From Planctomycetota bacterium (GTDB taxonomy: Bacteria > Planctomycetota > SZUA-567 > H5-PLA8): 64,000 nt of DNA. The stretch covers positions 51,726-115,725 of the forward strand of contig JAKLKQ010000006.1 of the NCBI GenBank assembly GCA_023150555.1, written 5' to 3'. Shown one piece after another: positions 29,668 to 63,700 of the stretch; the first letter of the stretch is position 1; the number at the start of each line of letters is the position of its first letter. The notes under the pieces were generated by a model that was not told the DNA's origin, ran no database searches, and saw only the letters and a program-made list of their open reading frames with translations. The position numbers and the translations under genes are program-made.

Positions 29668-29827
29668 GCGGCGGAGAGGCCTATTGCTGTTTCGGCAGGA
29701 ATTTGTATCTCTTTTAAAATGTGTGAGTTACATTGTTTTTGCACGTTGTGCCTTGAAGGTGCCGTCGGCGCTTGCTACACTTATAAGGTTGCACGGGGCG
29801 CAACGCAGGCTTGCGGGGGAATATCGA

Positions 29828-31072
29828 ATGGATCTCGACCAACTCTTGATCGATCTCGGTCAGCGCGGCGGCTCGGACTTGCACCTCAAGACCGGGCGCC
29901 CGCCGCTGTTCCGCATCAGCGGCGACCTGATGCCGCAGACGACCTACCCGGTGATCAGCCCGGAAGAGATGCGCGAGACGCTCTACCGCCTGATGGGCCC
30001 GGAACGCAGCCGCATCTTCGAGCAGGAAATGGAGTGCGACTTTTCGTACGAGATTCCCGGCTACGCGCGCTTCCGCGTCAACGCCTTCATCCAGCGCGGC
30101 CAGATCGGCTCGGTGATGCGCTTGATCCCGCTGGAAGTGCCGACCATCGACGGCATGGGCCTGCCCAGCGTGCTGAAGGAGATCGCCGACCAACCCAACG
30201 GCTTGGTGATCGTCACCGGACCGACCGGCAGCGGTAAGTCCACCACGCTGGCCGCCATGATCCAGCACATCAACCAGAACAACCCGCTGCATATCATCAC
30301 GATCGAGGACCCGATTGAATTCGTGTACAGCGACGAACTGTCCACCATCAACCAGCGCGAACTGGGCCTGGACACCCACGAACTGCACCGCGCGCTGCGC
30401 GCCGCGCTGCGCCAGGACCCCGACGTGATCCTGATGGGCGAAATGCGCGATCCGGAAACGATCCACTTCGCCATCACGGCGGCCGAGACCGGCCACTTGG
30501 TCTTCTCGACGCTGCACACCAACGACGCCAAGCAGTCGCTGGACCGCATCCTCGGCACCTTTGAAGGCCCCGAAGCCAACCAGGTGCGCATGCAACTGGG
30601 CCTGGTGCTGCGCGGCGTATTCTGCCAGCGCCTGGTCAAGCGCGCCGACGGACAGGGGCGCTGCGCGGCGATCGAGATCATGATCAACAGCCCGCACATC
30701 AAGGAAGTCATCGAGACCGGCGCCACCCGCGACCTGGAAAAGGCGATCCAGGAAGGCGCGCACTACAAAATGCAGACCTTCAACCTGTCGCTGTACAACC
30801 TCTTTAAGGCCGGCGCGATCGGCGAGGAAGAGGCCCTGGCCAGCAGCAGCGCGCCGGAAGACCTGATGCTGATGATGCGCGGCATCCAGCGCGGCACTAC
30901 TGCCGACGAGATGGCCGCCACCGGCTTCGCCGCGCCCGCCAAGGGCGCCACCACCACCAAGGGCGCTCCGGGCATGGCCACCAAGATCGGCGTGAACATC
31001 ACGCAGTCGGCGCCCACCAAGGGCGGCATGCCCGACAAGAAGAAGCCGCCGGGGCGCGGCTTCAACTTCTGA
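29828..31072 (+). CDS. pilT: Type IV pilus retraction ATPase PilT with a ~65-aa C-terminal extension
   Basis: Walker A GPTGSGKST, and Asp-box and His-box regions typical of PilT (VILMGEMRD, FSTLHTN). The ATG at 29828 (MDLDQLLIDLG) matches canonical PilT N-termini. The track ORF begins earlier, at 29684. Confidence 0.85.
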   Translation: MDLDQLLIDLGQRGGSDLHLKTGRPPLFRISGDLMPQTTYPVISPEEMRETLYRLMGPERSRIFEQEMECDFSYEIPGYARFRVNAFIQRGQIGSVMRLIPLEVPTIDGMGLPSVLKEIADQPNGLVIVTGPTGSGKSTTLAAMIQHINQNNPLHIITIEDPIEFVYSDELSTINQRELGLDTHELHRALRAALRQDPDVILMGEMRDPETIHFAITAAETGHLVFSTLHTNDAKQSLDRILGTFEGPEANQVRMQLGLVLRGVFCQRLVKRADGQGRCAAIEIMINSPHIKEVIETGATRDLEKAIQEGAHYKMQTFNLSLYNLFKAGAIGEEEALASSSAPEDLMLMMRGIQRGTTADEMAATGFAAPAKGATTTKGAPGMATKIGVNITQSAPTKGGMPDKKKPPGRGFNF

Positions 31073-31102
31073 TCCGGTTTCGCGGAAGAATCACGAACGA
31101 AC

Positions 31103-31129
31103 AGAGGCGGGCCCGAACGGCCCGCCTCT
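31103..31129. terminator. Bidirectional terminator hairpin between convergent pilT and the secreted paralog gene
   Basis: 11-bp stem AGAGGCGGGCC/GGCCCGCCTCT with loop CGAAC, flanked by T-rich sequence. Confidence 0.5.
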
Positions 31130-31130
31130 T

Positions 31131-32063
31131 TCATTTGCCGGATTGCGCGGATCCGGCGGGCTCAATGGCAATTTTCACGTCGTTCGAGCGCAATTCGCCG
31201 GACCAAGCCTCCAGGCCTTCGAGATCCTTCGCCTCTACCTTCTGGCGGAAGATGCCGTCGATCGAGCAATCATCGCCGTTATCGATGGCCAGGCCGCGCT
31301 TGTCCGCCACGACCGAATGGATGACGCTCAACCGCACGGTCCCTTCCATCGGAGCGGCCAGGAACGCACCACGATCGTCCCCCAGACTCAAGCCAGGTTC
31401 GCTGCCGCGCTTTTCGCCGTTACTGCCGACATACGCCTGGTCGAAGTGGACTTTGCAGCGGTAGCTCTTCGTCTCGCCGGCAGGCAATCGCGCGTAGAGT
31501 CTGTGGTTGCCAAATTTGCAGGACATTAACATGTCCACAGACGCCAGGTAGACCAATTCGCGTTCCGCGCCAACGCCTTTCGTTGTTACGCGACATACCG
31601 CGTAGCCGCATTCAAACTTGTTCCCCCAATTGCTTTCGCCGACGTACAGCAGCAGGTCTCTTTCGCCTCGATTGGCCAGCGAGACGGTCAGCACGACGCT
31701 TTCGCCCGGTTTGACCGCCTTGCGGTCGGCCTCGAGCGCGCAGACGATGCCGTTGGTTTCGGGCGAGCTGAGTTCGTACAGTTCGACCACCTTCAGCGCC
31801 CGCGCGGCGAATTCGGGGCTGCGCTCCTTTTCCTTCAACGCCTGTTTCAGAGGCGCGACGGCGGGCTCGCCGGTCTCGATCAACCCTTTCACGGCCTCCT
31901 CGCGCTTCACGAAGTCGTCGCTGTCCAGGTCGGCGATGTATGCCGCGATCTTACGTGTGGTGGCCTCGCTGTTTTCGTTCGGCTTGAGCGGGGCGTCGGA
32001 GGCGCAGGCCGCGCAGGCTAGCGCCAGCAGGGGGACAAACAAGGGCCTTCGCGCCGATTTCAT
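31131..32063 (-). CDS. Secreted/lipoprotein hypothetical protein, paralog A
   Basis: Signal/lipobox-like N-terminus MKSARRPLFVPLLALACAACAS. Shares a helical N-domain (KIAAYIADLDSDDFVKREEAVKGLIETGEPA) with the upstream paralog. The track ORF extends to 32393, but the start at 32063 is ATGA-coupled to the upstream gene. Confidence 0.6.
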   Translation of the reverse strand: MKSARRPLFVPLLALACAACASDAPLKPNENSEATTRKIAAYIADLDSDDFVKREEAVKGLIETGEPAVAPLKQALKEKERSPEFAARALKVVELYELSSPETNGIVCALEADRKAVKPGESVVLTVSLANRGERDLLLYVGESNWGNKFECGYAVCRVTTKGVGAERELVYLASVDMLMSCKFGNHRLYARLPAGETKSYRCKVHFDQAYVGSNGEKRGSEPGLSLGDDRGAFLAAPMEGTVRLSVIHSVVADKRGLAIDNGDDCSIDGIFRQKVEAKDLEGLEAWSGELRSNDVKIAIEPAGSAQSGK

Positions 32064-32890
32064 GGTTTGCCCTCTGCTTTTTCGGATTCCAACACGCTGC
32101 CGAGCACGCGAATACGCAAGACGTTGCTGCTGACGTCCGCTTCCAGGCCCGGCGCAAGCTTCTTGGACTGCGCGAAATAGTCGATCTGCAGGTCGTAGGT
32201 ACCGGGTCCCAGGGCACCTCGAAGAAGCTCGCTCAGGTCGTAGACGGTCTTCACGGTCGCCCCCGGCTTCAACGGTTGCGTCGCAGTGTCGGGTCCACTT
32301 CCGCAGGCCTCCAAGCCATTTCCTTTCTGCTTCTCGCCGGATACCTGGGTGATCCTGAGTATGCCGGTGCAGGAAGTGTACGCCATGTACCAACCGGCGC
32401 CTTCGACGGTCAGGCGCTTCTGCGGCGCGACGGCGAGGTCCTTCTCGCCGACGTTCGCGAGTTCGAACTCGAGTTCGATGCGCTCTCCGGCACGGTAGTC
32501 TTCTTTTTCCGTGCGCAGGGTCGCCTGCAATCCGCCGACGGCCTTGCCGCCCTTGATCGATGCCTGCCGCATTCGTTGGCGGATTCCGGCGGCCGCCGCC
32601 TGGGCGCGGGACTTCGCTTCCAGGCTGGGCGTTCGCGCCAGGAAGTCCTCGATGGGCTTCAGTGCCGGTTCGCCGCTCTCGACGAGCTGCTTCTGAGCCA
32701 GCTCGCGCGCGGCAGCTTCCTCGTGGTCGAGATTCTTCAGGTTCGCGGCGATGGCGGCGGCCTGGGTCTTCTGCGTTTCTTCGACCGTAAGGCTGCCTTC
32801 CCTGGCGCCGGCCGCGGCGGCCACGGCGACAAAAAGGAGCGGCAGCAGCAGGGCCGCGGTCGGGGCGTGCAGCGGAACCGTCTTCGTCAT
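32060..32890 (-). CDS. Secreted hypothetical protein, paralog B
   Basis: Signal peptide MTKTVPLHAPTAALLLPLLFVAVAAAAGA. The segment AIAANLKNLDHEEAAARELAQKQLVESGEPA is homologous to paralog A. Confidence 0.6.
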   Translation of the reverse strand: MTKTVPLHAPTAALLLPLLFVAVAAAAGAREGSLTVEETQKTQAAAIAANLKNLDHEEAAARELAQKQLVESGEPALKPIEDFLARTPSLEAKSRAQAAAAGIRQRMRQASIKGGKAVGGLQATLRTEKEDYRAGERIELEFELANVGEKDLAVAPQKRLTVEGAGWYMAYTSCTGILRITQVSGEKQKGNGLEACGSGPDTATQPLKPGATVKTVYDLSELLRGALGPGTYDLQIDYFAQSKKLAPGLEADVSSNVLRIRVLGSVLESEKAEGKP

Positions 32891-32964
32891 GGCGCCTCCA
32901 GCTAAAGTAAGGGAGGCGCGGGTGTACCCGCGCCTCCGGAAACGTCCAGGATCCGGCGACGGCG

Positions 32965-34239
32965 TCACTTGGCTTCGTTGTACTCGATGCCCTTCTTGCC
33001 AGCCTGAGCCTTGAGCATCTTCATCACCTCGCCGTCGAAGCTCTTGTCGCCGCTGCCCTTCTTGGCCAACTCATCCTTGATGAATTCGGCGCGCTTCTTG
33101 CCCAGATCCTCGATCTTGGCCTGGATCTCCTTGCGCTCGGCGGCCTTCTTTTCCAGGAACGCCTTGCGCTCCTCTTCGCTCATCTTCTGCATCTCGTCCG
33201 GCAGTTCCTCGGCCTTGGTGTTGGCCAGCGCCTTTTCTCCGCCGGCTTCGAAAGCAGCCACCAGGTCGGCTTTGCCGACTTCGCCGCCCAGGCCCATGCC
33301 GGCCATCTCGGCCGGGGGCGCACCGCTGGGACCGGCGGCAGCGGGAGCGGCGGCGCTGGTCTTGGCGCGGAATTCGCTCTTGTCGGCGGCGACGGCCAGC
33401 TTGGCGCCGTCCCCACCCTCAGCCGCATCCTTGGCTTCGGCCTCGGCCTTGCGGGCTGCGCCGCGGGCCATTTCACGCCGCTTGGCGTCGCCGTAGTAGA
33501 CACCGGTGCCGACCAGCTTGCCGGACAACTCGGCCATCTCCTTGTCGTAGGGCGTCGCCACGACCTGCACCCCGCCGCTCTGTGCGATCGACGTGTAGCT
33601 GCCTTCGGCCTTGGCGGCGATTTCCTTCCAGGTCGTTTCGGTCTCGGCGTTGCCGCCGCAGCGGACCGTGTTGATGACGATGTCCTTCAGCACGGCGGCC
33701 TTGCAGAGTTCCGGGTACTTGGTGTCGTCGGTGTAGTCCATGTGCGGCGGCGCGTCGCCGACCAGGAAGATCACGCGGTAGACCTTCTCGCCCTTCGGCG
33801 ACCAGCCGATGCGATTGACCGCATCGCCCAGGCCCTGGTTGACGGACTCGGGCGTGTCGCCGCCGCCCTTGGCGCTGAGCGCGAAGAGCTTCTGGTGGAT
33901 CTCGTCCAGGTTCGCGGTGAGGTCCGTCACCTGCGTGACGTACTCTTCCTTCTTGTCGCGGTAGGCGACCAGGCCCACCTTCACCTCGGGCACCGGCTTG
34001 CCGCTGACGATGCCGTTGACGATGCTCCAGATCTTCTGCTGCGCGCCGGCGATCAGGCCGGACATGCTGCCGGTGGTGTCGATCACAAAGACGACCTCGA
34101 CGCGCGCGCGGGCGGCCGGTGCGTCGGGTTTCTTGCCGCCGTCGGCCAGCAGGTCTGCGGCGGATGCGGTGAAGGTGCAGAAGGCAGCGAGCGCCAAAAG
34201 CGCGGCCAGCTTGGGAAGGGTCTTCGTCTTCGCGTACAT
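32965..34239 (-). CDS. Secreted von Willebrand factor type A (vWA) domain protein with a Lys/Glu/Ala-rich helical C-terminus
   Basis: Signal peptide, plus a MIDAS motif VVFVIDTTGSMSG with downstream T and D residues. Confidence 0.75.
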   Translation of the reverse strand: MYAKTKTLPKLAALLALAAFCTFTASAADLLADGGKKPDAPAARARVEVVFVIDTTGSMSGLIAGAQQKIWSIVNGIVSGKPVPEVKVGLVAYRDKKEEYVTQVTDLTANLDEIHQKLFALSAKGGGDTPESVNQGLGDAVNRIGWSPKGEKVYRVIFLVGDAPPHMDYTDDTKYPELCKAAVLKDIVINTVRCGGNAETETTWKEIAAKAEGSYTSIAQSGGVQVVATPYDKEMAELSGKLVGTGVYYGDAKRREMARGAARKAEAEAKDAAEGGDGAKLAVAADKSEFRAKTSAAAPAAAGPSGAPPAEMAGMGLGGEVGKADLVAAFEAGGEKALANTKAEELPDEMQKMSEEERKAFLEKKAAERKEIQAKIEDLGKKRAEFIKDELAKKGSGDKSFDGEVMKMLKAQAGKKGIEYNEAK

Positions 34240-34265
34240 CGTGGGATCTCCTCGTTCGGTTCCGG

Positions 34266-36839
34266 TTACTTGGCCTTCGGTGCGCCGGCGTCGCCGGTCT
34301 TGGCCGGTTCGATCTGGTACGCCTGGCCATCGACGACGACCAGGATGGTGCCGCCCAGCGCCATGACTGCGCCGAGCTTCGGATTCTTGGTCAGGAGCTG
34401 GAAGTACTCCTTGCTGAAGGTCTCGATCTTCTTCGGCTCGGCCTTCTCGTCGTGCTTGAACGTCGAGTCGATCCAGACGCCGTGGCGCAGGTAGAAGGTG
34501 TGCCCGGCGGCGTGCTTGATGGTCAGTTCCTGCGCGACGGCGACTGCGTCGGCCATTTCTTCGGCCTTTTCGCCGTTCTCGGCACCGGGCTCGCCGGCCG
34601 GTCCGAAGTTTCCGTTGCCGCCGGCCAGGAAGGCCTGGTTGCGCAGGCGGCGCGCGGCCTCGGCGTTCTTGTCCCTCTTCCCGTCGGCAGCCAATTCGAG
34701 CCCCGCATCGGCGTTGGGGTCGATGCTCTTGGCTTCCTTGAAGCGCTCCTCGAACTCGCTCAGGCCCACCGCCACGCCGCCGGACTGTCTGGTCTGCGCA
34801 GCCTGGGCGGCCATCTTCGCCACGTCCTTGGCTTCGCCTTCGGCGTCGGACATGGCCTTGGTGGCTTCTTCCGGTTTGGCAGCCGGGGCGGCGGCGGCAA
34901 GGCGATCGGCCATGTCCTTGCGCAAGGCCTCCCTGCGTTCCGCGCCCTTCAGGTTCGCGCGGTCGTCGCCGCGAAAGTGTCCGCCGCCCAGCATGATGCC
35001 GGGCTGCATGCCGGGTTCGAGCACCAACTGGCTGGTATAAGGCGTCACGATGCCGTGCTGCTGGCTCAGGGCGACGATCTCGTCGATGGTCTCCTTGTTG
35101 GCGCCGTGCAGGCGCACGTCTTCAAGCAGGTGGCCGATCTTGCGCATGGCCCAGACGCGCGGCAGGAAGGCGTTGTCGGTCTCCTTGTCGGGCCAGGCGA
35201 CGCTGACGCTGATGGTGCGCTGTTCGCCGCCGATGTAGCCGGTAAGCGTGACGGGGCCCGAGCCGGCGCCCTTGTAGCGGCCGAAGGCAAGGATCTCGCT
35301 GCCCTTGAACAACGCCGGGATACGGCGCGGATACATGCTGTGCGCGCGGGCGTCCGGGCCGAAGTCGAAGGCCAGGTCGGTCATGACCGGGTTCTTGATC
35401 TTGCCGTAGAAGTCGCTGAGCTTCAGCTCCAGGTCTTCCTTCATCGCGACGTAGCTGCTGGCGCCGTCGTAGTCGGCAGCGATCTTGTCGAGCAGGTGCG
35501 TGTTGACGTCGGTGCCGACGCCGAAGTTGAAGATGCGCGCGCCGTGCGCGTTGGCGCCGGCGACGTCCTTCAGGATCTCCGGGATGTCGGTGATGCCGAC
35601 GCTGGGCAGGCCGTCGGTGAGGAAGATGACGAGCTTGGCCTTGCCCTTGCCTTCGGAGAAGTCGTTGGCGAGCGCCTCGCGCAGGGCGCCGTCGATGTTC
35701 GTGCCGCCGGTGGCTTCCAGCAATTCGACGGCCTTGATCGCCTTGCCGACGTTCTCTTTGGTCGCATCGAGCAGTTTCTGCGGGCTGAGCGTGCGGACGT
35801 CGGTGGAGAACGTGACGAGGTTGAAGCGGTCCTTCTCATTGAGCTGCCCCAGGCAGAAGGTAAGGGCCTTCTGCGCCTGGACCATTTTGTTCTCCTGCAA
35901 CATGCTGCCGCTGGTGTCGAGGACGAAGACGATCTCCTTGGGCAGGATGCGCGCCTTGGCCAGCTCGTCGTCGGGGCGGCCCACGAGCATGAAATAGCCG
36001 TCCTCGTCGGAGTTCGGGCGGTGCGCGATCACGCGCAGCGCGACGTCTTCGGTGCTGGGCGCGTAGTACAGGTTGAAGTCGCGATCGCTGGACAGGTTCG
36101 CCTGCGACAGTTTCACCACCGCGGTGTGCTCGTCGGGGCGCGTCACCGTGACGGTGTGGCTGGGGCTGTAGACCGGACCGATGCTGTCCTTGCTGCGGAT
36201 CACGCACTCGAAGCTGAACGACTCGAGGCCCGCCGGGTACAGCTGGCTGCCGGCCAGGATGTGGCGGAAGTCGTAGAGGCCGTTGACCGGCGCGAGCACG
36301 GTGTCGTAAGTGAACTTCAGGCGCCGCTCCTCGTTCGGCGGCACGGGGAAGATGCGCGCTTCGTACAGGTTCTCGCCGACGAAGCGCAGCAGCGCCGGGT
36401 CCCGGCGCTGCTGGACGATCGAGGTATAGATGCGTTCGGCTTCCTCGGCGGTGTGCAGGTTGCCGGTGACCATCGTGTCGTTCATCGAGAGCGCCGACTT
36501 GTTGATCGTCGCGCCCTTGGGCAGTGGGATCATCACGCGCACTTCCAGATTGCCGCCGGTCAGGTTCAAAAAGCTCTGCTCGATGGTGGTGCTCGCGACG
36601 TTCTCCTGGATGCGCACGTCCACGCGGCTGCTCGTCACGCGGAAGGGCAGGTCGCCGGGCTGCGGCGGGCGAATGGGGCGCCAGCCGGGCGGCATCGGCG
36701 CAATCGCCGCGACCTTTGCGACCGCTTCGTCCCTTTCGACGGGCACCAGCAGCCCCGACGCGTGCGCCGGGCCGGTGACCGCCAGCGCCAGGAGCGTGAT
36801 CGCCGAAAGAACCAGGAACTCGAATCGTCCGAACTTCAT
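34266..36839 (-). CDS. Secreted VIT (vault protein inter-alpha-trypsin) + vWA domain protein
   Basis: Signal peptide MKFGRFEFLVLSAITLLALAVTGPAHA, an N-terminal VIT-like domain, and a vWA MIDAS motif IVFVLDTSGSM. About 857 aa. Confidence 0.75.
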   Translation of the reverse strand: MKFGRFEFLVLSAITLLALAVTGPAHASGLLVPVERDEAVAKVAAIAPMPPGWRPIRPPQPGDLPFRVTSSRVDVRIQENVASTTIEQSFLNLTGGNLEVRVMIPLPKGATINKSALSMNDTMVTGNLHTAEEAERIYTSIVQQRRDPALLRFVGENLYEARIFPVPPNEERRLKFTYDTVLAPVNGLYDFRHILAGSQLYPAGLESFSFECVIRSKDSIGPVYSPSHTVTVTRPDEHTAVVKLSQANLSSDRDFNLYYAPSTEDVALRVIAHRPNSDEDGYFMLVGRPDDELAKARILPKEIVFVLDTSGSMLQENKMVQAQKALTFCLGQLNEKDRFNLVTFSTDVRTLSPQKLLDATKENVGKAIKAVELLEATGGTNIDGALREALANDFSEGKGKAKLVIFLTDGLPSVGITDIPEILKDVAGANAHGARIFNFGVGTDVNTHLLDKIAADYDGASSYVAMKEDLELKLSDFYGKIKNPVMTDLAFDFGPDARAHSMYPRRIPALFKGSEILAFGRYKGAGSGPVTLTGYIGGEQRTISVSVAWPDKETDNAFLPRVWAMRKIGHLLEDVRLHGANKETIDEIVALSQQHGIVTPYTSQLVLEPGMQPGIMLGGGHFRGDDRANLKGAERREALRKDMADRLAAAAPAAKPEEATKAMSDAEGEAKDVAKMAAQAAQTRQSGGVAVGLSEFEERFKEAKSIDPNADAGLELAADGKRDKNAEAARRLRNQAFLAGGNGNFGPAGEPGAENGEKAEEMADAVAVAQELTIKHAAGHTFYLRHGVWIDSTFKHDEKAEPKKIETFSKEYFQLLTKNPKLGAVMALGGTILVVVDGQAYQIEPAKTGDAGAPKAK

Positions 36840-37771
36840 GATGGATACCTCCAGGTCTCGTGCCGTCTTCTTCGCCCGATTCGACGCGATCCGTGCGTGG
36901 CGGTTTCGGTGAATCCCGGAATTCACGGAGACTACGTACACAAAGGAGGCGCGTGCTATTTAGTAGTGTATTAGGATATGGAATCCACCGGGACTAGGTC
37001 GCACTTCTCATGTAACTTGTTTATAGTAAATTACTTATAGTACCAGGCTCTGCCGGTTCGCCGAAAAGTCCACGCCTTTCGCCGACAATCCCAGCCATCC
37101 CCCGTTCGAGCTTGACCGGCCGATGCTACAAACGGAATGCCGGCTGAGCCGACGTCAGAAAGAAGGGAGAAAAGCCCGTGACAAACGCGCATGCGCGCCT
37201 TGGCCTTGCCTTGGCGATTCTCACGTTGTCCGCCGCGGCGAACTCGAACTCGGCGAAGACATAAAGGAAGGACGCTGGGTCGTCGCCGAACGCCACGAGA
37301 AGGCGCCGGTGGACGGCGTGCTGCAGACCCGCTTGAGGTGCATGCTTGTCGTGCGGACCGAGTCCGGCCACCTGAAGCCCATCCCGAACGCGGAGATCGA
37401 TCACGTCCGCTTGATCTATCCGAACGACGTGATGGTCGAGACCGCGCGCGTCCGAAGCTCTTCGGCGAGCGCCGTAGGTCCTCACAAATCTCCGAATTGT
37501 CATCCTTGCGCCGGAACGCATTCCGGCCTCTAAAGGCACCGGTTTTGCCTTGAAACAGCACTGCGCATGGCGCAATTTTTCTCGCTTCCGGGGCGCACAA
37601 TGTGCTTTCCCCGCAAATGCAGCTTTCGAGCGAATTTCACGTCCGTTTAGAGGGACCGGAAGGAACTTTGGTGTAAGAACAGAGTGTATAAAACGTTGCT
37701 AATAGAGAGGTTGCCTTCGCGTCGAAAGTCCGGCTTGTCAGCCCGAAAGCCGCAGCATTAGGAGCCGCACC

Positions 37772-39907
37772 GTGGCGATTCTCTTCCAGTGTTCCTCCTG
37801 CAATTCCAAGATGCGCGTCCCCGATGCGCACGCGGGCAAGAAAGCCAAGTGCCCCAGCTGCAAGCAGGTCGTCAACATTCCGGCCCAAAGCACCTTGAAG
37901 GATGCCACCAAGTCCACGCTCGACCTGCAGGCCACCGAAGACGACCTGGCGCTTCAGGATCCGAACGCACCGGCCGGCGCGCCCGAAGCCGCCAAGCCCA
38001 AGTTCATCACCTTCGACTGCCCCTCGTGCGGCAAGAAGACTGGATTTCCCAGCGAGAAGGCCGGTCAGCCGGCCACCTGCCCCAGCTGCAAGGCCACGCT
38101 GATGGTCCCCGATGCGGCTGGCGGCGAGGCCTTCATCATCGGCGAACTGCCTCCCGGCGCGCCCGCACCCGCGAAGCAGGGCAGCGCGCGCAGCGGCATG
38201 GCGCCGAAGGTTCAGGTGCGCCGCGACCTGCTGGCCAAGAAGAGCAACGCCGCCGCGCCCGCGGTGAAGAGGACCCAGGCGCTGGTGGTCCTCGGCGGCG
38301 TGCTGGCGGCCGGCCTAGTCACCGGACTGCTGCTGATGTGGGCGCTGAACGGGGGCAACGCCGAGAACACCGCGGCCAACACGCCCGCGTCCGGCAACAA
38401 CGCGCCCGCCGTCAACGGTTCGGCCACGAACGATGCCACGCCTGCCGCCTTGGGCCAGAGCGACCATGCGTCCGAACCGAGCGGCAAGACCGGCGCCGCC
38501 GTCACCCCGCGCCCCGATGAGATCGGCGGAAACCCTGCGGCAACGCCTAAGGAAACCAAAAACGGTCCTTCCGACGAGCCCCTGCTGATCTCCCGCCAGC
38601 CCAGAACCGAGGAGAGCACCGCACCCATCACGCCGCAGCCCGCCGAAGAGACGCCTGCCACCCAGGCCGCCACCGAGACGCCCGCCACTCCAGCCACCAA
38701 AACCGACGAGGACGACCTGGACCTCGATAAGCTGCAGAAGGAGAACGCGGACAAGGAGAAGCCGCCGGAAGTCGCCCAGGAGAACCCCGAAGGGGAAAAG
38801 ACCTCCCTCGGCTTCCTCAAGAAGGACGATCCCGCCAAAGCCGAAGATCCGGCCGCACAGCCTGCGCAACCCGCCCAGCCCGCCAATCCGGAACCGGAGA
38901 AGCCCAAGGAGCCGGACCCGGAGCTCTACGCCAACAAGTTCGCGCCGCTGCCCACGCTGCGCCCGCTGGTGCACCTCGGCGACGCGCCGCCCGCGCAGGA
39001 CTGGGTCCTGGTGCCCTGGCAGTACAGCCCGACCTACAAGGGCGACAAGGATAACGAAAAGCTGATCACCGACGCCAAGCTGCGCTTTATGGAAGCCCGC
39101 AAGCGCTACCTCGCGTGGGTCGAGATGACCAAACTCAAGCTGCTGATGGTCAACACGCACCACGTTACGCTGTACTGCGAGCTGCCCGAGACGCTGGCGC
39201 GCAGCGTAGGCGACGCCTGCGAGAAGCTGACCGCGCACCTGCAGAAGGTCACCAAGAGCGTCGCGTTGACGCCCGCGCTGCCGGCCCAGCAGGAGATCAT
39301 GATCTTCTGGGAAGACTTCAGCTACCAGAACTTCATCAACGTGCTGGCCCAGAAGAACCCCGGCGTCGATTACACGCTGGCCCGCGCCGCCAGCGGCAGC
39401 AGCGACAGCCGCCACTTCGGCTTCTTCAACTCGAAGAAGGCCGCCGGCGCCCCGCCCGAACACATGACCCTTCACCAGTTCGGCAAGTTCATGATCATGG
39501 AAGCCACCGACGGCAAGGCGCCGCCCTGGCTGGCCGAAGGCTTCGCGTCATACAGCGAGAACGCGGTGTTGAACAAGAACCTGGTCTACTCGTTCCGCTA
39601 CGAAATGAACGACGTGAAGTTCTCGCCCAACTGGAACGAGGACCTGCGCAAGCTGGCCGAACAGCGCAAGCTGAAGGAGTGGAAGTTCATCTTCCAGCTC
39701 GACCTCATCGGCATGGGCAGCCTGGACTACTTCACCTGCTACTCGATGGTCAGCTTCTTCATGAAGAGCGACCCGCAGCGCTTCGTGACGTTCGTGCAGT
39801 ACCTGCGCGACGGGATGGAGCAGAATGCCGCGCTCACCAAGGCCTTCGGCCGCCCCGTCGAGGACCTGCAGAAGATGTGGGGACAGTGGGCCCTGCGCCA
39901 GCGCTAG
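37772..39907 (+). CDS. Membrane protein with two N-terminal zinc-ribbon modules, a Pro/Thr/Ala-rich linker and a conserved C-terminal globular domain (hypothetical; possibly DUF1570-like)
   Basis: Two CxxC...CxxC zinc ribbons (CSSC..CPSC and CPSC..CPSC), a TM helix ALVVLGGVLAAGLVTGLLLMWAL, and a ~330-aa conserved C-terminus. GTG start with an aggag RBS. Confidence 0.65.
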   Translation: MAILFQCSSCNSKMRVPDAHAGKKAKCPSCKQVVNIPAQSTLKDATKSTLDLQATEDDLALQDPNAPAGAPEAAKPKFITFDCPSCGKKTGFPSEKAGQPATCPSCKATLMVPDAAGGEAFIIGELPPGAPAPAKQGSARSGMAPKVQVRRDLLAKKSNAAAPAVKRTQALVVLGGVLAAGLVTGLLLMWALNGGNAENTAANTPASGNNAPAVNGSATNDATPAALGQSDHASEPSGKTGAAVTPRPDEIGGNPAATPKETKNGPSDEPLLISRQPRTEESTAPITPQPAEETPATQAATETPATPATKTDEDDLDLDKLQKENADKEKPPEVAQENPEGEKTSLGFLKKDDPAKAEDPAAQPAQPAQPANPEPEKPKEPDPELYANKFAPLPTLRPLVHLGDAPPAQDWVLVPWQYSPTYKGDKDNEKLITDAKLRFMEARKRYLAWVEMTKLKLLMVNTHHVTLYCELPETLARSVGDACEKLTAHLQKVTKSVALTPALPAQQEIMIFWEDFSYQNFINVLAQKNPGVDYTLARAASGSSDSRHFGFFNSKKAAGAPPEHMTLHQFGKFMIMEATDGKAPPWLAEGFASYSENAVLNKNLVYSFRYEMNDVKFSPNWNEDLRKLAEQRKLKEWKFIFQLDLIGMGSLDYFTCYSMVSFFMKSDPQRFVTFVQYLRDGMEQNAALTKAFGRPVEDLQKMWGQWALRQR

Positions 39908-43283: not shown

Positions 43284-46200
43284 CTACTTGCCGCTTAACG
43301 CCTTGGCTTTCTTCGCAAGGTCGATGAACTCGGCGCGCTGGCCTTCCGCGTCGGCGCCCTTGCTCTCGCCGGCCAGCTCCAGCACGAAGTCCCAGTTCAA
43401 ATTCTTCGCGTAGACGCTGCCGCGCAGCAGCATGCCGAAGGCGGCGACCGAGGACGCGAAGCGGAAGTCCGGGCTGCTCTGTTCGAGCTTCTTTCCGCCG
43501 TCGCGCACCGGGACGCTCAGTTCCGTGCTCTTGTCTTCCTCGGGCTGCTTGTAGCGCAGCCACACGGTCAGCAGCTCGCCGCTGGTCTTCGCGTCTTCCT
43601 TGACCTTGGCTTCCTCGAGGTACCGCGACGCGCGTTCGGCGGGCGCCTTGGGCGCGGCCAGCTCGGCAAGTTTGACGGTGCGCTTGACCGTCGTCTTGAT
43701 CACGTTCGCGTCGGCGACGGCGCTGACTTCGAACTCGTACTCGCCGTCGGCCGTGGGCAGGAAGTACGCGTTCGGGCGGTCGGCGTCGCGCAGGTCGGCC
43801 TTGGGGCCGCCCGTCTGCTTCCAGATGAAGGTCAGCTTCGCGACTTCTTCGGGCTTGGCGTTCAGCAGCAGCACGTCCAGAGGCACGCGCACGGGCTGCA
43901 CGGCTTCCTCGGTGCCGGCTGGAATCACCTCATACAGCGCGGTGACGGCGTGGCCCGCGCCGATCTCGCCGGCGTCCTTCGTGTCGTCGGCGAAGTCTTC
44001 CTTGCGCATCAGGCGGTTCTCGTAGCCGATCAGGCGGTAACTGTGCGCCGTCGCGGGATTGAATTCGACCTGCACCTTCACGTCCTTGGCGATGGTCACC
44101 AGCGTGCCGGCCAGCTCCTGCCCGAAGACCTTCTTCGCTTCCTGGAACGAGTCGATGTACGCGTAATGGCCGTTGCCCTTGTCGGCGATGGCTTCGAGCT
44201 TGTCGTCCTTATAGTTGCCCATGCCGAAGCCGAGCACGCTCAGGAAGACACCGCTCTTGGCCTGTTTCTCGATCAGCTTCACCAGTTCGTCGTTGCTGGT
44301 GGTGCCGACGTTGAAGTCGCCGTCGGTGCAGAGGATCACGCGGTTGGTGCCGCCGGCAATGTGGTTCTTCGCCGCGATCGCGTAGGCCTTCTGGATTCCG
44401 TCGCCGCCATTGGTGCTGCCGCCGGCGTTCAGCGCGTTGATGCGTTCGAGGATGCGGCGCTTCTGGTCGCAGGGCGTGCTCTCCAGCTCGACCTTGATCG
44501 TGTCGCTGTAGGTCACGATGGCAACGCGGTCGCGGGCGTTGAGGTTGTCGACGAGCAGGTTCAGGCCCTGGCGCACGAGGTCCAGCTTGTTCGCGTCGCC
44601 CATCGAGCCGCTGACGTCGACGAGGAAGACCAGGTTGCTGCTGGGTCGGCTGTTCGGATCGATCTCGCGGCCCTTCAAGGCGATGCGTACCAGGCGGTGC
44701 GCGGCGTTCCACGGGCAGGTGGCGACCTCGATGTGCGTGGCGAAGGGCTCCTTCGCGTCGCTGGGCGGCGGCTCGTACGCATAGCGGAAGTAGTTGATCA
44801 ACTCCTCGTAGCGCACCGCGCCGAGCGGCGGAAGCTGGTTGTCGTTTAGCCAGCGGCGCACGTTCGAGTACGACGCGGTGTCCACGTCGATGGAGAAGGT
44901 GCTGATCGTGCGGGCCTTCTCGAAGGGATTCTCGTTCACCACCGCGTAGGATTCGGTCTGGCGGCCTTCGTCGGGGTGCGGTGCAACGTAGCCCATGCGC
45001 CCGTGGTCGAACTCGCCGTCGACGCCCAGCAGCGCGAGGCCGCCGTCCTTGAACGCGCCGCCGATGCGGTAGTCGTCAAGGGAGCTCATCATATCGCTGA
45101 AGCGCCCGCCGATGCGCGTGAGGCGCCACCTGTCGTTGTTTTGTCCGCGCGCGGGATCCGCCGCGTTGAAGTGCCAGATGACCATCCCGCCGGGCGCTTC
45201 CGGTGCGGGCGTTGCAGGCGAGCGAGCGCCGGACCATTCGCCGCGGGTCCACAGTCCGCGCGTCGAGCCGCGGTCGGCCCAGAGGTTGTCGGTCAAGCGG
45301 TAGCCGGTGGCGACGTAGAAATCGCTAACAGCGGAAATTTCTTCGAGCACGCCAGCCGGATGATACGCGCGGAACTGGTCGGCCCAGTGCTGCTGCGTCG
45401 AACGGTATCCGGTGTCGAAGTTGAATCCTTGAAAATTGAAGTCGTGATGCGGGGTGACGCCGTGGTACTGCGCGTAGGCGTCTTCAATCGAAACCTTTGA
45501 CACCGAAAGGAAGTAATCTGGCGACGGCAGACCGTGAAGCGAATGAGGAACGATCTCTTGGTGCCGCGAACTACCGCGCGTATTACGCCAAGCATCTTCC
45601 TTGCTCATCAGTCCATAGGCGACGGCCCAATTGGCGTTGTTGATATCACGCGCATTGTACCAGCGGTCGCGGATGCCTTCCTCGCCGATGATCACGCTGT
45701 CGGCGATTCGTTTCTGCGTCTCCATATCAAACCTAAGCTGCCCGCGGCGGATGGCGAAGCCGTCGTTGTCTTCCTGCGGGGCATACACATCGTTGAGATT
45801 GATGCCGCTGTCCCGCGAAATGCCTACGGCAACGTTGTCGTTCTGGATGGTGTAGAACCACGTCTGCACCAGCCCGCCCATGGTGAGCTTGCCTTCTTTC
45901 GTCGTCACGCCGGCGTTGGGGCCATACTTGTCCTCGACGACAGTGTCAGCGGAGCCGATGGACGCAACGGCAGGAGCGTTCGTCTTCTGTTCTTTGGCCA
46001 ATTGCTCGCGCAGCTGCCTTAAATCTTCGCGAAGCTGCCTGATCTCTGCGGTCTCCGAGTTTTCGCCACCTTGTATTGTTGGGGCCTTTTTTACCGTCTC
46101 TTTCTTCTGTGCAATCTGGCCTTCAAGCTTCGCGATTTCGGTCTTGATTATCCCCTCGGGACTCGTGATTTCCCAGACCGGAAAGCCCTTTTCGAGGATG

Positions 46201-47618
46201 CCGGGCTTCGGCGCGTCGGTCGTCTTCTTCGTCTCCGCGATCTCGGCCTCGGGCTTCGCGTCGGCGGTGGCCGTCGAGTCTGCAAGCGGCGGGCCCGGTC
46301 GGCGCGAAGCATCGCCGTAGCGAATGCCAAGATCCAGTTGTCTGAAGCTACCGTCGGACCTGGACGCCACTTCGCGCGAAAGACCTTGGATCAATTGGGG
46401 ATGCTCTGCCCAACGGTACCAACCACTGGCAATTGCGGCCTCCGTGCGCTCCGGGGGAGGCGGCGGTCCTGGCGAATACGTCAGCTCAGGCGAGGCCGGA
46501 TGATACGGCGCAACCGGATCCGCTTCTTCCTCCAGCCGCTCCTTACCCAATTCTTCGTTCATCAGGTGCCAGGTGCCTTCGATGGTGTTCGGCGAACTGT
46601 TAATCTGAAGATCAACCGCATCCTCGGTCCTGTATTTCTCCGGCGCCCAAGCGAGCGACGTCTGAAGCCGCTCCTCGCCGATCTTCAGATTCTCGTCCGT
46701 AACTCGGTCGACTTCTTCGAGAAGCTCGGAGATCTTTTGGTTGTGGCGCTGGATTACCGCGGCGCGCGGCGCGACGGCAGTCTCCATGTTCACTTCCGCG
46801 CCCATCCAGCCCGCACCGCTACTGGTCCCGCCTGAACTGGACGTGGCGCTGCCGCTGCCCGGCTGGGCGTCTGCGGCATCCGTTACAGAGGCAATAAAGG
46901 CCCCCAGCTTCTCATGCTGCACACTCAGGTTCTCCTGGACGTCGGCCGACAAATTCGCATCGTTGTGTACGCCGTCGATAGTGATGCCGTTGCCCGCCTT
47001 GAACTTCCCGATCTGAAATTCGAGCGCGGTGTCCAGGTCCAAAGTATTCGACGCGGCCTGGTCTTGCGCCGGCGTCGGCATGTCCACCGCAACGGACGAG
47101 GACGGACTCATCTGTCCGTACGAAGCCACCAGCAGGCCCACCAGCACGGAGATGACCAGCGTCGCGGCGACGGCGCCGAGCGCGAAGTAGCGCCGGAAGG
47201 GTGACGGCGCGGGCCGCGTGGCTTCCCGCGCGCGGCGCCCGCTGCCGGCGGCGGCGTGCGGTTTTTCCGATACGGTGCTTACGGTTTGTGTAGGAGCTTC
47301 GTCCTCGAATGCGGCGGCCATGAGGGCTTCGGCGCTCAGAGCACTGGCTAGCCGGCCGCCTTTCACCGAGGAGGACTCCGTGGCGCCCAGCCCAACGCAG
47401 AGCGTTTCGCCCGTCGCGCGCAGGTCTTCGACGTACTGGCGCAGTTCGGGGTCGCGCGCGATCGCTCCGGCGATGGCCGCGATGCTTTCCTCGTCGAGCG
47501 CCTCGAGTTCGCCCAGCGCGTAGGCGGTGACGCGCGGGTCGTCCCGCCAGCCGCCGTTCGCGGCTTCGGCGCCGTTCTTCCAGGCGATCGTTTCGTTGTT
47601 CTGGTCGTGCTCGCTCAT
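43284..47618 (-). CDS. Giant anti-sigma-factor::YfbK-type vWA fusion protein (1444 aa)
   Basis: N-terminal anti-sigma-like cytoplasmic domain (RVTAYALGELEALDEESIAAIAGAIARDPELRQYVEDL), one TM helix, a large periplasmic region, and a C-terminal vWA (LVFLVDVSGSMGD) + DUF3520-like module as in YfbK. It starts 27 bp after the ECF sigma gene. Confidence 0.75.
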   Translation of the reverse strand: MSEHDQNNETIAWKNGAEAANGGWRDDPRVTAYALGELEALDEESIAAIAGAIARDPELRQYVEDLRATGETLCVGLGATESSSVKGGRLASALSAEALMAAAFEDEAPTQTVSTVSEKPHAAAGSGRRAREATRPAPSPFRRYFALGAVAATLVISVLVGLLVASYGQMSPSSSVAVDMPTPAQDQAASNTLDLDTALEFQIGKFKAGNGITIDGVHNDANLSADVQENLSVQHEKLGAFIASVTDAADAQPGSGSATSSSGGTSSGAGWMGAEVNMETAVAPRAAVIQRHNQKISELLEEVDRVTDENLKIGEERLQTSLAWAPEKYRTEDAVDLQINSSPNTIEGTWHLMNEELGKERLEEEADPVAPYHPASPELTYSPGPPPPPERTEAAIASGWYRWAEHPQLIQGLSREVASRSDGSFRQLDLGIRYGDASRRPGPPLADSTATADAKPEAEIAETKKTTDAPKPGILEKGFPVWEITSPEGIIKTEIAKLEGQIAQKKETVKKAPTIQGGENSETAEIRQLREDLRQLREQLAKEQKTNAPAVASIGSADTVVEDKYGPNAGVTTKEGKLTMGGLVQTWFYTIQNDNVAVGISRDSGINLNDVYAPQEDNDGFAIRRGQLRFDMETQKRIADSVIIGEEGIRDRWYNARDINNANWAVAYGLMSKEDAWRNTRGSSRHQEIVPHSLHGLPSPDYFLSVSKVSIEDAYAQYHGVTPHHDFNFQGFNFDTGYRSTQQHWADQFRAYHPAGVLEEISAVSDFYVATGYRLTDNLWADRGSTRGLWTRGEWSGARSPATPAPEAPGGMVIWHFNAADPARGQNNDRWRLTRIGGRFSDMMSSLDDYRIGGAFKDGGLALLGVDGEFDHGRMGYVAPHPDEGRQTESYAVVNENPFEKARTISTFSIDVDTASYSNVRRWLNDNQLPPLGAVRYEELINYFRYAYEPPPSDAKEPFATHIEVATCPWNAAHRLVRIALKGREIDPNSRPSSNLVFLVDVSGSMGDANKLDLVRQGLNLLVDNLNARDRVAIVTYSDTIKVELESTPCDQKRRILERINALNAGGSTNGGDGIQKAYAIAAKNHIAGGTNRVILCTDGDFNVGTTSNDELVKLIEKQAKSGVFLSVLGFGMGNYKDDKLEAIADKGNGHYAYIDSFQEAKKVFGQELAGTLVTIAKDVKVQVEFNPATAHSYRLIGYENRLMRKEDFADDTKDAGEIGAGHAVTALYEVIPAGTEEAVQPVRVPLDVLLLNAKPEEVAKLTFIWKQTGGPKADLRDADRPNAYFLPTADGEYEFEVSAVADANVIKTTVKRTVKLAELAAPKAPAERASRYLEEAKVKEDAKTSGELLTVWLRYKQPEEDKSTELSVPVRDGGKKLEQSSPDFRFASSVAAFGMLLRGSVYAKNLNWDFVLELAGESKGADAEGQRAEFIDLAKKAKALSGK

Positions 47619-60737: not shown

Positions 60738-63700
60738 ATGAACGCGAACGAAGGCAGTCCCGGCGCGAGCACCCCTTCCGAGCGCCCCCTTATAAAGGAG
60801 GCGGCCCCGTCTGCGCCCGGCGCTCTCGCGGCGCGCGGCTGGCTGCGCGGCCTGGTCGAGTACCTGGCGCAGACGCGCTGGTGGGCGGTGGCCGCGGCCT
60901 TCCACGTGCTGCTGCTGGCGCTCTCCGGCGTTGTGGCGATGGTCGCGCTGCCGTACTTTGGCCAGGGCGAAACGTACAGCACGCTCTCCCTCGTCCATCC
61001 CCCGGCGCCCGAGTACGACGAGAAGCCCGCGCGCGACGTCTTCCTGAAGCCCATGCCGGTCGACGCGAACAGCGCACCCATCGAGAACCCCATGGTCACG
61101 CACGAGACCATCGAGTTCGGCGACCACAGCGAGACCGAGGTCTCGAACAGCTTCGACACGCAGATGCTGCGCGGAGCGGCAGGCATGAGCGACATGCCGA
61201 TGGGCGGCAGCGGCACCGTTGCGGCCATCGGCTTCGGCGGCGGCGGGGGCGGCGCGTACGGCTGCTCAAGCTACGCCGGTGCCGGCGGACGCCGGCGCCT
61301 GGCCATGCGCGGCGGCGGCGCATTGGCGACGACCGAGCGCGAACGCCGCGCGTATGCCGTCGATCCGCGCGTCGCGGCCGCGGTGCGCTGGCTGGCGCAG
61401 AACCAGGACGCCGACGGCGGCTGGGACTGCAAGGCCTTCGGCGGCAAGGAGCACGACGTCGCGGTCACCGGCATGGCGCTGCTCGCGTTCCTCAGCGCCG
61501 GCAGTACCGAGATGGAAGGCCCCTACCGCGACCAGGTCCGCCGCGCGGTTACGTACCTCAAGCAGCACCAGCTCCCCGATGGGCGGCTCGCCGGAGCCGG
61601 CGGCGAAGGCGATGGCTACGCGCACGCAATCGCGGGGATGAGCCTGGCCGAGGCCGCGGGCCAGGGCCGCGTCAGCGATACGATCCGCGCCGCGCAGCAG
61701 GCCGCCTTCTGGAGTGCCGCGCTGCCGGACGTGCCGGACGCCGCGTGGCGTTACCGCGGGCCGGGAGGTGAGGGCGACCTCTCCGTCACCGGCTGGTACG
61801 TCCTGCAGCTCGACGCCGCGCGCGCCAACGGCCTGCGGGTCTCAGACCATGCGCTCGACCAGGCCCGCGCGTTCCTCGACCGCGTGTCGGTGAAGGAGAA
61901 GGGCGCGGCTGCCACGAAATATCTTTACAGACCCGGCGGCAAGGAGAGCGTGCGCCTGGACGCCATCGGCGCGGCCTGTGACCTGCTGCTGGGCGACGGG
62001 CGCAGCCCCGCGCACGGCCTGCGCGCGCTGCCCGACGCGCGCACGCCCGATCTGTACTACTGGTACTACGGCACGCTGGCCGCGTTCCAGGCCGGCGGGC
62101 ATCCGTGGAAGCAGTGGCACGGCGCGCTGTACCGCACGCTGGCCAGCACGCAGCGGCGGGGCGGCGCGGAGACCGGAAGCTGGGACCCCGCGGGCGACTA
62201 CGCCGACCACTGGGGCCGCGTGGGCCAGACCGCGCTGAGCGCCCTGTGCCTGAACGTCTACAACCGCAACCTGCCCGCCGCGCCCGACAGCACCGCCGGC
62301 CTGGCGCCGGCCCCCGCGCCCGAACCCAAGCCGCAGGCGCTCGAGAACCCGCAGGATGCCGTCGATCCGGTCGCGAACACCGAAAGCTACGATCCGATCG
62401 ACGAAGCGACCTTCACGAAGGTCATCGGCGCCGACGCGCTCTCGACCTTCGACATCGACGTCGACACCGCGTCGTACTCGAACGTGCGCCGCTTCATCCA
62501 GGGCGGGGACCTGCCGCCCGCCGGCGCGGTCCGCATCGAGGAGCTGGTCAACTACTTCGACTACGATTACCGGGCGCCGGACAACGGCGACGCCTTCGCC
62601 GTGCGCACGGAGATCAACGAGTGCCCGTGGAGCCCCGCGCACCGCCTGGCCCTGGTGGCGCTGAAGGGCCGCGAACTCGAACGAGCGAAGCCCGAGGCGC
62701 GGCCGTCGAGCAACCTCGTTTTCCTCGTCGACGTCAGCGGCTCGATGAGCGCCGACAACAAGCTGCCGCTGGTGCAGCAGGGCCTGCGCCTATTGGTCGA
62801 CAACCTCAACGCGAAGGACCGCGTCGCCATCGTCACCTACGCCGGCCACGCGGGCGTGGCGCTGGAGAGCACGCCCTGCGGCGACAAGCGCGGCATTCTG
62901 AACGCGATCAACAGCCTGGGCGCCGGCGGCGGCACCAACGGCGCGCAGGGCATCCTGACCGCGTACGAACTGGCGAAGAAGGGCTTCATCCCCGGCGGCG
63001 CCAACCGCGTGATCCTGTGCACCGACGGAGACTTCAACGTCGGCGTCACCAGCCGCGACGAGCTGCTGGACCTGATCAAGGAGCAGGCGAGGAGCAACGT
63101 CTTTTTGACCGTGCTGGGCTTCGGCATGGGCAACTACAAGGACAGCACGCTCGAACTGCTCGCCGACAAGGGCAACGGCACCTACGGCTACATCGACACC
63201 TTTACGGAGGCGAAGAAGGTTTTCCAGAACGATCTCGACGCGACGCTGGTCACCATCGCCAAGGACGTGAAGATCCAGGTCGAGTTCAACCCCGCCAAGG
63301 TCGCCGCCTACCGCCTGATCGGCTACGAGAACCGCGTGATGGCCGCCAAGGACTTCCGCGACGACACCAAGGACGGCGGCGAGATCGGCGCCGGCCACCG
63401 CGTCACCGCGCTGTACGAGCTGATTCCCTTTGGCGACCCGGGCGCCTCCGCCGTGCGCGGCGCCGGCCCGCTGAAGTACCAGGAAACCGCCAAGTCCAGC
63501 GCCGCCGCGCAGAACGGAGAACTCTTCACCGTCTACCTGCGCCACAAGCAGCCCGAAGGCGATTCGGCCACCGAGCGCGACGTCGCGGTGCGCGACGCGG
63601 GACTCGGGTGGAAGGACGCTAGCGCCAACCTGCGCTGGGCCAGCGCGGTGGCCATGTTCGGCTTCCAGTTGCGCGGCAGCGCGCACAAGGGCCGCACCGG

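Follow-up and report, generated by a model that had tools for sequence, protein, structure and literature searches.

What do four neighbouring planctomycete genes, each of which seems to encode a secreted protein, form together: a conserved machine or a smaller unit with additions? The genes, A-D in order of reading, occupy positions 31131-36839 of a 64,000-nucleotide stretch of contig JAKLKQ010000006.1 from a Planctomycetota bacterium; the whole stretch is referred to below as the window. A sequence-only reading had described them as a four-gene secreted operon, with a domain layout rare in bacteria, for adhesion or matrix assembly. The cluster is real, but the four genes do not make up a conserved machine, nor are the parts rare. 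The recurring unit is the A-B pair, which is found across many bacterial phyla.

The four genes lie co-directionally on the minus strand. The ORF list and the sequence bear out the spacing reported previously, with gaps of 26 bp (A-B) and 74 bp (B-C) and an ATGA overlap of C and D at 32063-32060. The sequence GGAGG stands directly 5' of the ATG of gene A, and also 5' of the ATG of gene C at 32890; a longer GTG ORF from 32968 is not needed as the start of gene C. Products of the lengths given in Table 1 were reproduced by independent gene calls on identical metagenome contigs. Each product has a single N-terminal hydrophobic, signal-like stretch followed by an AxA-type site (AHA/S, ASA/A, AGA/R and ACA/S in A, B, C and D, respectively), with nothing TM-like further on. 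Export was predicted by reading these two features, from which all four proteins look exported, in agreement with the signal peptides assigned earlier. Assignment of D as a lipoprotein was weakened, as the lipobox-like cysteines are not kept in an 85%-identical homologue. The four products are probably non-enzymatic binding proteins.

Table 1. Features of the cluster and its surroundings (positions in the window).
Feature	Position	Strand	Basis or description
Hairpin right after the D stop, before the convergent pilT-like gene	31103..31129	.	11 pairs, 9 G-C
Gene D, 310-aa paralogue of C	31131..32063	-	Gene start overlaps C stop (ATGA)
Gene C, predicted exported, 276 aa; HEAT-like helical aa ~36-113, Ig-like beta-sandwich aa ~119-264	32060..32890	-	AF2 model
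GC-rich hairpin in the B-C gap, 11-bp stem, 10 G-C pairs	32912..32937	-	Terminator-like scan
Gene B, predicted exported vWA_4 protein, 424 aa	32965..34239	-	Pfam PF25106, 61.5 bits; family alignment
Gene A, predicted exported ITIH-like protein, 857 aa	34266..36839	-	ORF list, Pfam, phmmer
C-terminal domain of A, aa ~771-845, conserved	34305..34529	-	Orthologue alignment, tblastn
vWA domain of A, aa 303-471, DTSGSM MIDAS motif	35427..35933	-	Pfam PF00092, E = 6.3e-22, 79 bits
VIT domain of A, aa 69-178	36306..36635	-	Pfam PF08487, E = 4.1e-20, 72.4 bits
932-bp stretch with no gene calls, from A to the divergent gene	36840..37771	.	Gene calls
Divergent neighbour, 711 aa	37772..39907	+	Two zinc ribbons, one TM helix, linker, Peptidase_MA_2-like domain

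In the product of gene A, a signal peptide precedes a VIT domain and a vWA domain whose MIDAS is intact; after these come a post-vWA region that is ITIH-like, a linker rich in Ala, Glu and Lys and, at the C-terminus, a conserved domain of some 80 amino acids. The Pfam HMM check proposed with the earlier reading was run and confirmed VIT and VWA in A and VWA_4 in B; the VIT match of A (cut-off 26.5 bits) covers profile positions 2-111 of 111. The MIDAS is complete, with D308, S310, S312, T380 and D409 invariant in an alignment of 16 orthologues. ITIH4 (9c4f) was matched by phmmer to residues 69-626 of A with E = 4.4e-45, and ITIH1 and PARP4 are further homologues; the ITIH heavy-chain layout ascribed to A was thus upheld. 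The orthologue alignment gave F782, Y783, W789, P802, Y812, F813, L815, A827 and L828 as invariant in the C-terminal domain, and tblastn matches to A from many phyla run to residue ~843. No Pfam match was obtained for the C-terminal domains of A or B at E = 10. The supposed rarity of VIT-vWA proteins in bacteria was contradicted: at least 4,926 protein clusters from many phyla matched at E <= 1e-10 (8,000 candidates scored), and two peptide patterns alone gave 216 matches in species-representative genomes, again from many phyla. A literature search for bacterial VIT-vWA operons yielded nothing relevant, the sole match being a cytoplasmic VIT-vWA protein in Limnobacter, and no established function for bacterial VIT-vWA proteins was reported in the literature found.

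In the product of gene B, a signal peptide is followed by a vWA domain bearing a DTTGSM variant of the MIDAS motif, a linker of low complexity and, towards the C-terminus, a conserved helical region. The metal site is near-canonical (DxTxS) and is conserved in the alignment of the B family, which is uncurated. Homologues from other phyla likewise begin with signal-like segments. No sequence relatives of B were found in the PDB.

Genes C and D are tandem paralogues (BLASTP E = 9e-11, 27% identity; one family profile matches both), with D differing from C by insertions in its beta domain and an extended C-terminus. Structure prediction, the other check proposed, was performed with AF2 and gave the helical and beta-sandwich domains expected from the sequence-only reading (pLDDT 91 for C using a 45-sequence alignment; pLDDT 51 with six sequences, which was unusable). 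Fold matches were to HEAT proteins for the helical part and to Ig-like domains for the beta part. The best Foldseek match was a chain of the metalloendopeptidase AsaP1; CARDB, MG domains, arrestin and GH3 C-terminal domains scored alike, so the beta part is a generic Ig-like sandwich. No Pfam match was found in C or D. A word-seeded search returned only two and four proteins, respectively, as if C and D were orphans; this was rejected when an exhaustive profile search gave 868 representatives of an uncurated family of ~250-aa exported proteins. Conserved positions of the family are mostly Gly, Leu, Ala, Asn and Ser, together with R62 and E91 in the helical domain, and no catalytic-type conserved residues were seen in its alignment.

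The hairpin in the B-C gap has identical arms in the two loci L089 and L090, with varying loop and flanks, and gave fold z-scores of -3.0 to -4.5. Its motif occurs once in the window. It could act in attenuation or termination, stabilize the RNA or serve as a palindromic operator; a search of Rfam gave no match for it and nothing credible in 30500-38000. Given this conserved, terminator-like structure in the B-C gap, a single A-D transcript is not assured, and A-B and C-D may be separate transcription units. The U-tract after the stem is weak, making read-through plausible. The hairpin downstream of D is likely to be a bidirectional terminator. The promoter of A is presumably located in the gene-free stretch upstream, which is of lower G+C (0.45-0.56 near A). 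A scan of the region upstream of A for the sigma-70 consensus gave no match, and this region showed no sequence similarity to those of the orthologues.

The pairing of A and B was counted from both sides. Taking A as the centre, B adjoins it on the same strand at 27 of 79 loci from species-representative genomes, 25 in the order B->A (in Ignavibacteria, Bacteroidota, Cloacimonadota, Clostridia, Spirochaetes and Aminicenantes) and two in the order A->B. Taking B as the centre, A lies directly upstream at 26 of 80 metagenomic loci. Side-by-side VIT-vWA and vWA_4 genes occur in at least eight phyla. A is missing from 33 of the 59 informative B loci, and a PspA partner takes its place in 15-17 of these 33. 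Among the 15 closest species-level orthologues of A (50-61% identity, GTDB), none has B within the up to 10 kb checked (three of these contigs end at or near the 3' end of A); A is therefore evidently able to exist without an adjacent B. In a neighbour-joining tree the A of the window falls in a clade otherwise devoid of B, so the pairing either arose twice or was selectively kept.

Beyond very close relatives the four-gene set is not conserved, an outcome that the sequence-only reading had itself named as refuting. Only the nearest relative (L089) retains A-B-C-D, and a slightly more distant relative (L090/L091) has A-B-C without D. Besides the lack of B, only two of those 15 GTDB orthologues (L015 and L022) have a C/D-like gene nearby, as does one non-GTDB contig (L009); in L009 the C/D-type N-terminal domain is joined to a PD40 propeller. 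Among the 80 B loci, the sole C/D match was a C/D-like ORF in L107, and it lies on the opposite strand. No vWA neighbours were present in the four other contexts of C/D family members that were read (L092, L094, L095/L096 and L097), so the link of C/D to A-B rests on few related loci.

The product of the divergent gene has a Pro/Thr/Glu-rich linker and a degenerate HExxH in its Peptidase_MA_2-like domain. Homologues adjoin A orthologues in L011, L012 and L015, and it is possibly a lineage-level partner of A outside the four-gene set. On the other side of the cluster a PilT-like ATPase gene (29684-31072) is convergent. A role as a pilus adhesin was rejected: no pilin genes are nearby, the ATPase gene is not co-directional with the cluster, and no PilT match was found at the three more distant A loci checked (L007-L009).

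We give about an even chance to a two-gene A-B core with lineage-specific additions, the core working in the cell envelope as a binding pair that depends on MIDAS metal ions. A is a bacterial homologue of the ITIH heavy chains and B a second vWA protein with predicted export; both would leave through Sec, and neither carries a membrane anchor. As the two families are encoded by adjoining genes in many phyla, whichever gene comes first, the proteins most probably function as a heteromeric pair, for metal-dependent binding or scaffolding in the periplasm or at the cell surface. C and D would be non-enzymatic adaptor-type proteins gained downstream in this planctomycete lineage. Their helical domain may be a docking part, because it is found downstream of A orthologues and fused to differing C-terminal domains. 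The B-C hairpin probably sets different levels for A-B and C-D. Adhesion or matrix assembly, the role predicted earlier, is a reasonable guess.

It is also conceivable, although we consider it rather unlikely, that only A-B is a unit and that C-D is an unrelated unit lying downstream by chance. Planctomycete genomes abound in exported vWA and HEAT-like proteins, two further vWA giants being present in the window itself. The conserved terminator-like hairpin separating B from C, the lack of D in L090/L091, the C/D relatives without a vWA neighbour and the absence of a same-strand C/D gene from all 80 B loci point the same way. Against a chance neighbourhood, A-B-C is retained in L089 and L090/L091 with the identity of C down to 64%, a gene with the C/D-type N-terminal domain follows A in L015, L022 and L009, all without B, and the weak U-tract would permit read-through. 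An envelope-maintenance or stress module, in which the B family and hence A would act on the outer side of the cytoplasmic membrane during envelope stress and not as an adhesin, is suggested by the PspA-linked loci of B. Among the 80 closest metagenomic loci there are 15-17 where B directly follows genes for PspA/IM30 (Pfam 55 bits, cut-off 33.9) and for a 4-TM protein, a histidine kinase and an OmpR-type regulator being encoded divergently. We judge this module improbable: the PspA-linked B proteins are only ~40% identical to B of the window, B has no membrane anchor, and the cluster neighbours checked include no genes for PspA, a 4-TM protein or a two-component system.

The homology of A to ITIH4, ITIH1 and PARP4 raises the question of whether A, with B, presents C and D as protease-inhibitor-like light subunits with a beta-sandwich resembling IPI (BsuPI). 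A weak, sub-threshold match to the BsuPI Pfam family in six of 45 C/D family members (best E = 1.8e-4) and the AsaP1 chain as top Foldseek match would fit, but C and D themselves do not match BsuPI, their beta fold is the generic one, no protease gene is linked (the HExxH of the MA-like neighbour being degenerate) and the status of IPI as a true proteinase inhibitor has been questioned (PMC3901451). Such an analogue is most unlikely. Also very unlikely is the fuller form, a prokaryotic counterpart of inter-alpha-inhibitor in which B is an obligate partner of A and the two dock C and D via the HEAT-like domain, so that in the planctomycete envelope the Ig-like, IPI-like domain would be displayed to inhibit proteases or trap a ligand; if true, the heavy-chain/cargo logic of the ITI family would be older than animals. 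Least credible is a Bat-like complex. Its composition (two vWA proteins, a helical-repeat protein and a BatD/DUF11-like beta-sandwich protein) is paralleled here, and a profile of the C/D beta domain also matches DUF11/BatD-type repeats of the giant proteins P0127 and P0128. The defining MoxR ATPase and DUF58 genes were not found within ~10 kb around, which largely refutes it; moreover, A and B lack anchors of the BatA/BatB type, BatA (NCBIfam) scored 19.9 against a cut-off of 380, and the BatD Pfam family matched one of 45 family members (E = 0.036) and neither C nor D.

Bacterial VIT-vWA proteins are very numerous. The outcome is a testable unit in which an exported protein of this kind is paired with a specific partner of the vWA_4 type, together with two uncurated families (B and C/D). 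As it stands, this refines annotation and brings no surprise. Should A-B prove to be a real complex, it would open a way into the large group of 'VWA domain-containing hypothetical proteins' and would bear on the prokaryotic ancestry of ITIH-type proteins.

Among known systems, the best NCBIfam match of A was TIGR03788, the marine proteobacterial sortase target, with the same VIT-vWA core; assignment to it was rejected, as the score of 268 bits is far below the equivalog cut-off of 551.65 and A has no C-terminal sorting signal or TM segment. No sortase was found among the neighbours checked. Relatives of A are labelled K07114 by JGI, i.e. as YfbK-type vWA proteins ('Ca-activated chloride channel homolog' in KEGG); these resemble A as exported vWA proteins, whereas A has a VIT domain and lacks the vWF_A and YfbK_C domains of Pfam. 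Two true YfbK-type genes are present elsewhere in the window. The Bat operon (BatA-BatE, MoxR/DUF58) is likewise an envelope cluster with two vWA proteins and helical-repeat and DUF11-like beta-sandwich parts, but the present cluster is without MoxR/DUF58 and a membrane-anchored vWA protein, contains VIT, and has the helical and beta parts fused in one protein. In comparison with IPI of Bacillus subtilis (Pfam PF12690, PDB 3ISY), C and D carry an added HEAT-like domain. Inter-alpha-inhibitor includes bikunin and chondroitin sulfate, whereas the A cluster has no such partner, and a Kunitz domain was not found among the neighbours checked. The ITIH-type C-terminal cleavage/ester motif is DPHFII; nothing of this type was seen when the translation of A was read by eye, which also speaks against the inhibitor analogue. 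In layout A is like ITIH1-ITIH4 (PDB 6FPY and 9C4F) and other VIT-vWA proteins (PARP4 and VWA5A), with secretion, the VIT and vWA domains and a complete MIDAS as common features, the homology with ITIH4 reaching past the vWA domain. A differs from the ITIH proteins in being bacterial, in its extra linker and distinct C-terminal domain, and in having a second vWA gene as its partner.

The gene calls, gaps and N-terminal hydrophobic segments all match, so that the sequence-only reading of 31131-36839 as four minus-strand genes, separated by short gaps or an ATGA overlap and encoding proteins with signal-like N-terminal segments, is accurate. A and B are 26 bp apart and B and C 74 bp, the D start overlaps the C stop as ATGA, and a GGAG-type ribosome-binding site lies 5' of A, B and C. 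Independent metagenome contigs of identical sequence yielded the same four products on gene calling. Each product has a single hydrophobic stretch at the N-terminus, with an AxA-type site at its end; no later TM-like segments were seen in A-D, and the sequences are consistent with predicted Sec export. The cluster is real and built from common parts. The coordinates are listed in the table; the G+C content of the window is ~66%.

Features of the cluster and its surroundings in the window
Feature	Position	Strand	Description
PilT/T2SSE-type ATPase gene	29684-31072	+	convergent with D; probable common terminator hairpin
Gene D	31131-32063	-	310 aa; paralogue of C
Gene C	32060-32890	-	276 aa; paralogue of D
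B-C hairpin	32912-32937		in B-C gap; perfect 11-bp G+C-rich stem, weak U-tract
Gene B	32965-34239	-	424 aa; vWA_4
Gene A	34266-36839	-	857 aa; VIT + vWA
Stretch without called genes	36840-37771		932 bp, 5' of A
Uncalled ORF	37123-37533	+	central part protein-like
Divergent neighbour of A	37772-39907	+	711 aa
YfbK-type vWA protein	43284-47618	-	1444 aa; vWF_A + VWA + YfbK_C
YfbK-type vWA protein	60738-63812	+	1024 aa; vWF_A + VWA + YfbK_C

No pilin genes were found near the PilT/T2SSE-type gene, which is therefore probably unrelated to the cluster; a second hairpin, directly 3' of the D stop codon, probably terminates both genes. The 711-aa neighbour has two zinc ribbons at its N-terminus, a single TM helix, a long linker rich in Pro, Thr and Glu and, at its C-terminus, a Peptidase_MA_2-like domain with a degenerate HExxH motif (HMTLH, the second His not conserved in homologues); its homologues adjoin A orthologues in three other loci (L011, L012 and L015). 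The stretch 5' of A is unusually long, has a lower G+C content near A and shows no similarity to orthologous loci; the ORF within it has no Pfam match. The two YfbK-type proteins are further large vWA proteins of the window; exported vWA proteins are abundant in the genome.

The four-gene order is kept only very locally, which by the criterion set in the sequence-only reading refutes the four genes as a conserved system. A-B-C-D occurs in L089, the closest relative (85% identity in D), and A-B-C followed by a convergent gene, with D absent, in slightly more distant relatives (L090/L091; C 64% identical). None of L010-L024, the 15 species-level orthologues closest to A (50-61% identity), has B within up to 10 kb; only two of them (L015 and L022) have a gene with a C/D-type N-domain 3' of A, and so does L009, a non-GTDB contig with an A orthologue 62% identical to A.

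The VIT and vWA domains of A, which were to be checked against Pfam, both score above the cutoffs. [quoted passage not shown] An Ala/Glu/Lys-rich linker leads to a conserved C-terminal domain of ~80 aa without a Pfam match. The architecture is not rare in bacteria, as had been supposed: of only 8,000 candidates scored in a single search, at least 4,926 protein clusters reach E <= 1e-10 (among the 120 matches listed, VIT and VWA are both present in all except two incomplete entries), and two short peptide patterns retrieved 216 relatives in species-representative genomes of Planctomycetota, Ignavibacteria, Bacteroidota, Acidobacteriota, Actinomycetota, Verrucomicrobiota, Cloacimonadota, Clostridia, Spirochaetes and others.

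B is a VWA_4 protein (Pfam) with the MIDAS variant DxTxS and a C-terminal helical region conserved across phyla; no relative was found among solved structures. A same-strand B homologue (E from 1e-14 to 1e-88) adjoins A in 27 of 79 genome loci, ordered B->A in 25 (Ignavibacteria, Bacteroidota, Cloacimonadota, Clostridia, Spirochaetes, Aminicenantes) and A->B in two (L044, Tepidisphaerales, and L072). From the B side, A is immediately upstream in 26 of the best 80 of > 540 metagenomic relatives, and 33 of these 80 loci have both flanks present and no A immediately upstream. A quick NJ tree of A groups the B-linked loci in one large clade and places the A of the window in a separate, otherwise B-less planctomycete clade; its pairing with B would thus have formed anew or been kept by selection, and both cases argue for a functional A-B link. 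No literature describing the pair was found, and we regard it as a modestly new, annotation-level finding. Separately, of the 80 closest loci of the B family in metagenomes, 15-17 (L144, L165, L177, L140, L162 and ~10 more; e.g. L165:4248-6604) carry the vWA_4 gene directly 3' of genes for PspA/IM30 (55 bits in Pfam) and a 4-TM protein; a histidine kinase and an OmpR-type regulator are encoded divergently. This link may be undescribed, since 'vWA' is unmentioned in two large comparative PSP-system studies (PMC11237479, PMC9239133).

C and D are paralogues (E = 9e-11) without a Pfam match. Word-seeded searches gave almost no relatives; an exhaustive profile search gave 868 representatives (E <= 1e-3), many full-length at ~250 aa. 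HEAT_2 is weakly matched by 18 and BsuPI by six of 45 members, and the profile of the beta domain also matches DUF11-type repeats of giant surface proteins. Conservation falls mainly on Gly, Leu, Ala, Asn and Ser, and in the helical domain also on R62 and E91; nothing among these positions suggests a catalytic site. The lipobox-like cysteines of D are not retained in the 85%-identical homologue. This uncurated family is likewise modestly new at the annotation level. At L009:4703-5770, directly downstream of the A orthologue, a PD40/TolB-like beta-propeller replaces the beta-sandwich as the domain fused to the HEAT-like N-domain, which suggests that the latter is a portable module. Three clustered paralogues occur without a vWA gene on an unrelated metagenome contig (L097:505-3942); the family shows a tendency to local expansion by itself.

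The arms of the B-C hairpin are identical in L089 and L090, with differences in the loop and in the intergenic sequence around the hairpin; the relatives that keep the arms have flanking genes whose proteins are only 64-87% identical. The hairpin folds far better than shuffled sequences do, occurs once in the window and is without a match in Rfam. It may act as a leaky terminator/attenuator, stabilize the A-B message or serve as a palindromic operator, and a single operon is accordingly not established.

In the reading we favour, at about even odds, A and B would form an exported metal-ion-dependent pair for binding or scaffolding in the envelope, with C and D as lineage-specific non-enzymatic adaptors and the HEAT-like domain as the candidate docking part. 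The genes, the domains, the fold and the synteny counts are observed; the complex, its ligand and its role are inferred. C/D relatives in L092, L094 and L095/L096 have no vWA neighbour; that A-B and C-D are two unrelated units is a possible, distinctly less probable reading. A role in envelope stress, suggested by the PspA-linked B relatives, is unlikely.

Among known systems, a Bat-like complex is the least credible, as its defining genes are absent (MoxR and DUF58 were not found among the neighbours checked). An ITI-like inhibitor carrier is very improbable. A differs from the inter-alpha-inhibitor complex in that the ester-transfer motif is not seen in its sequence and no Kunitz partner was found among the neighbours checked. 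It also differs from the TIGR03788 sortase targets (268 versus 551 bits, without a sorting signal). C and D are similar in predicted fold to IPI/BsuPI and HEAT proteins, below the family thresholds, and A belongs with the ITIH-like VIT-vWA proteins.
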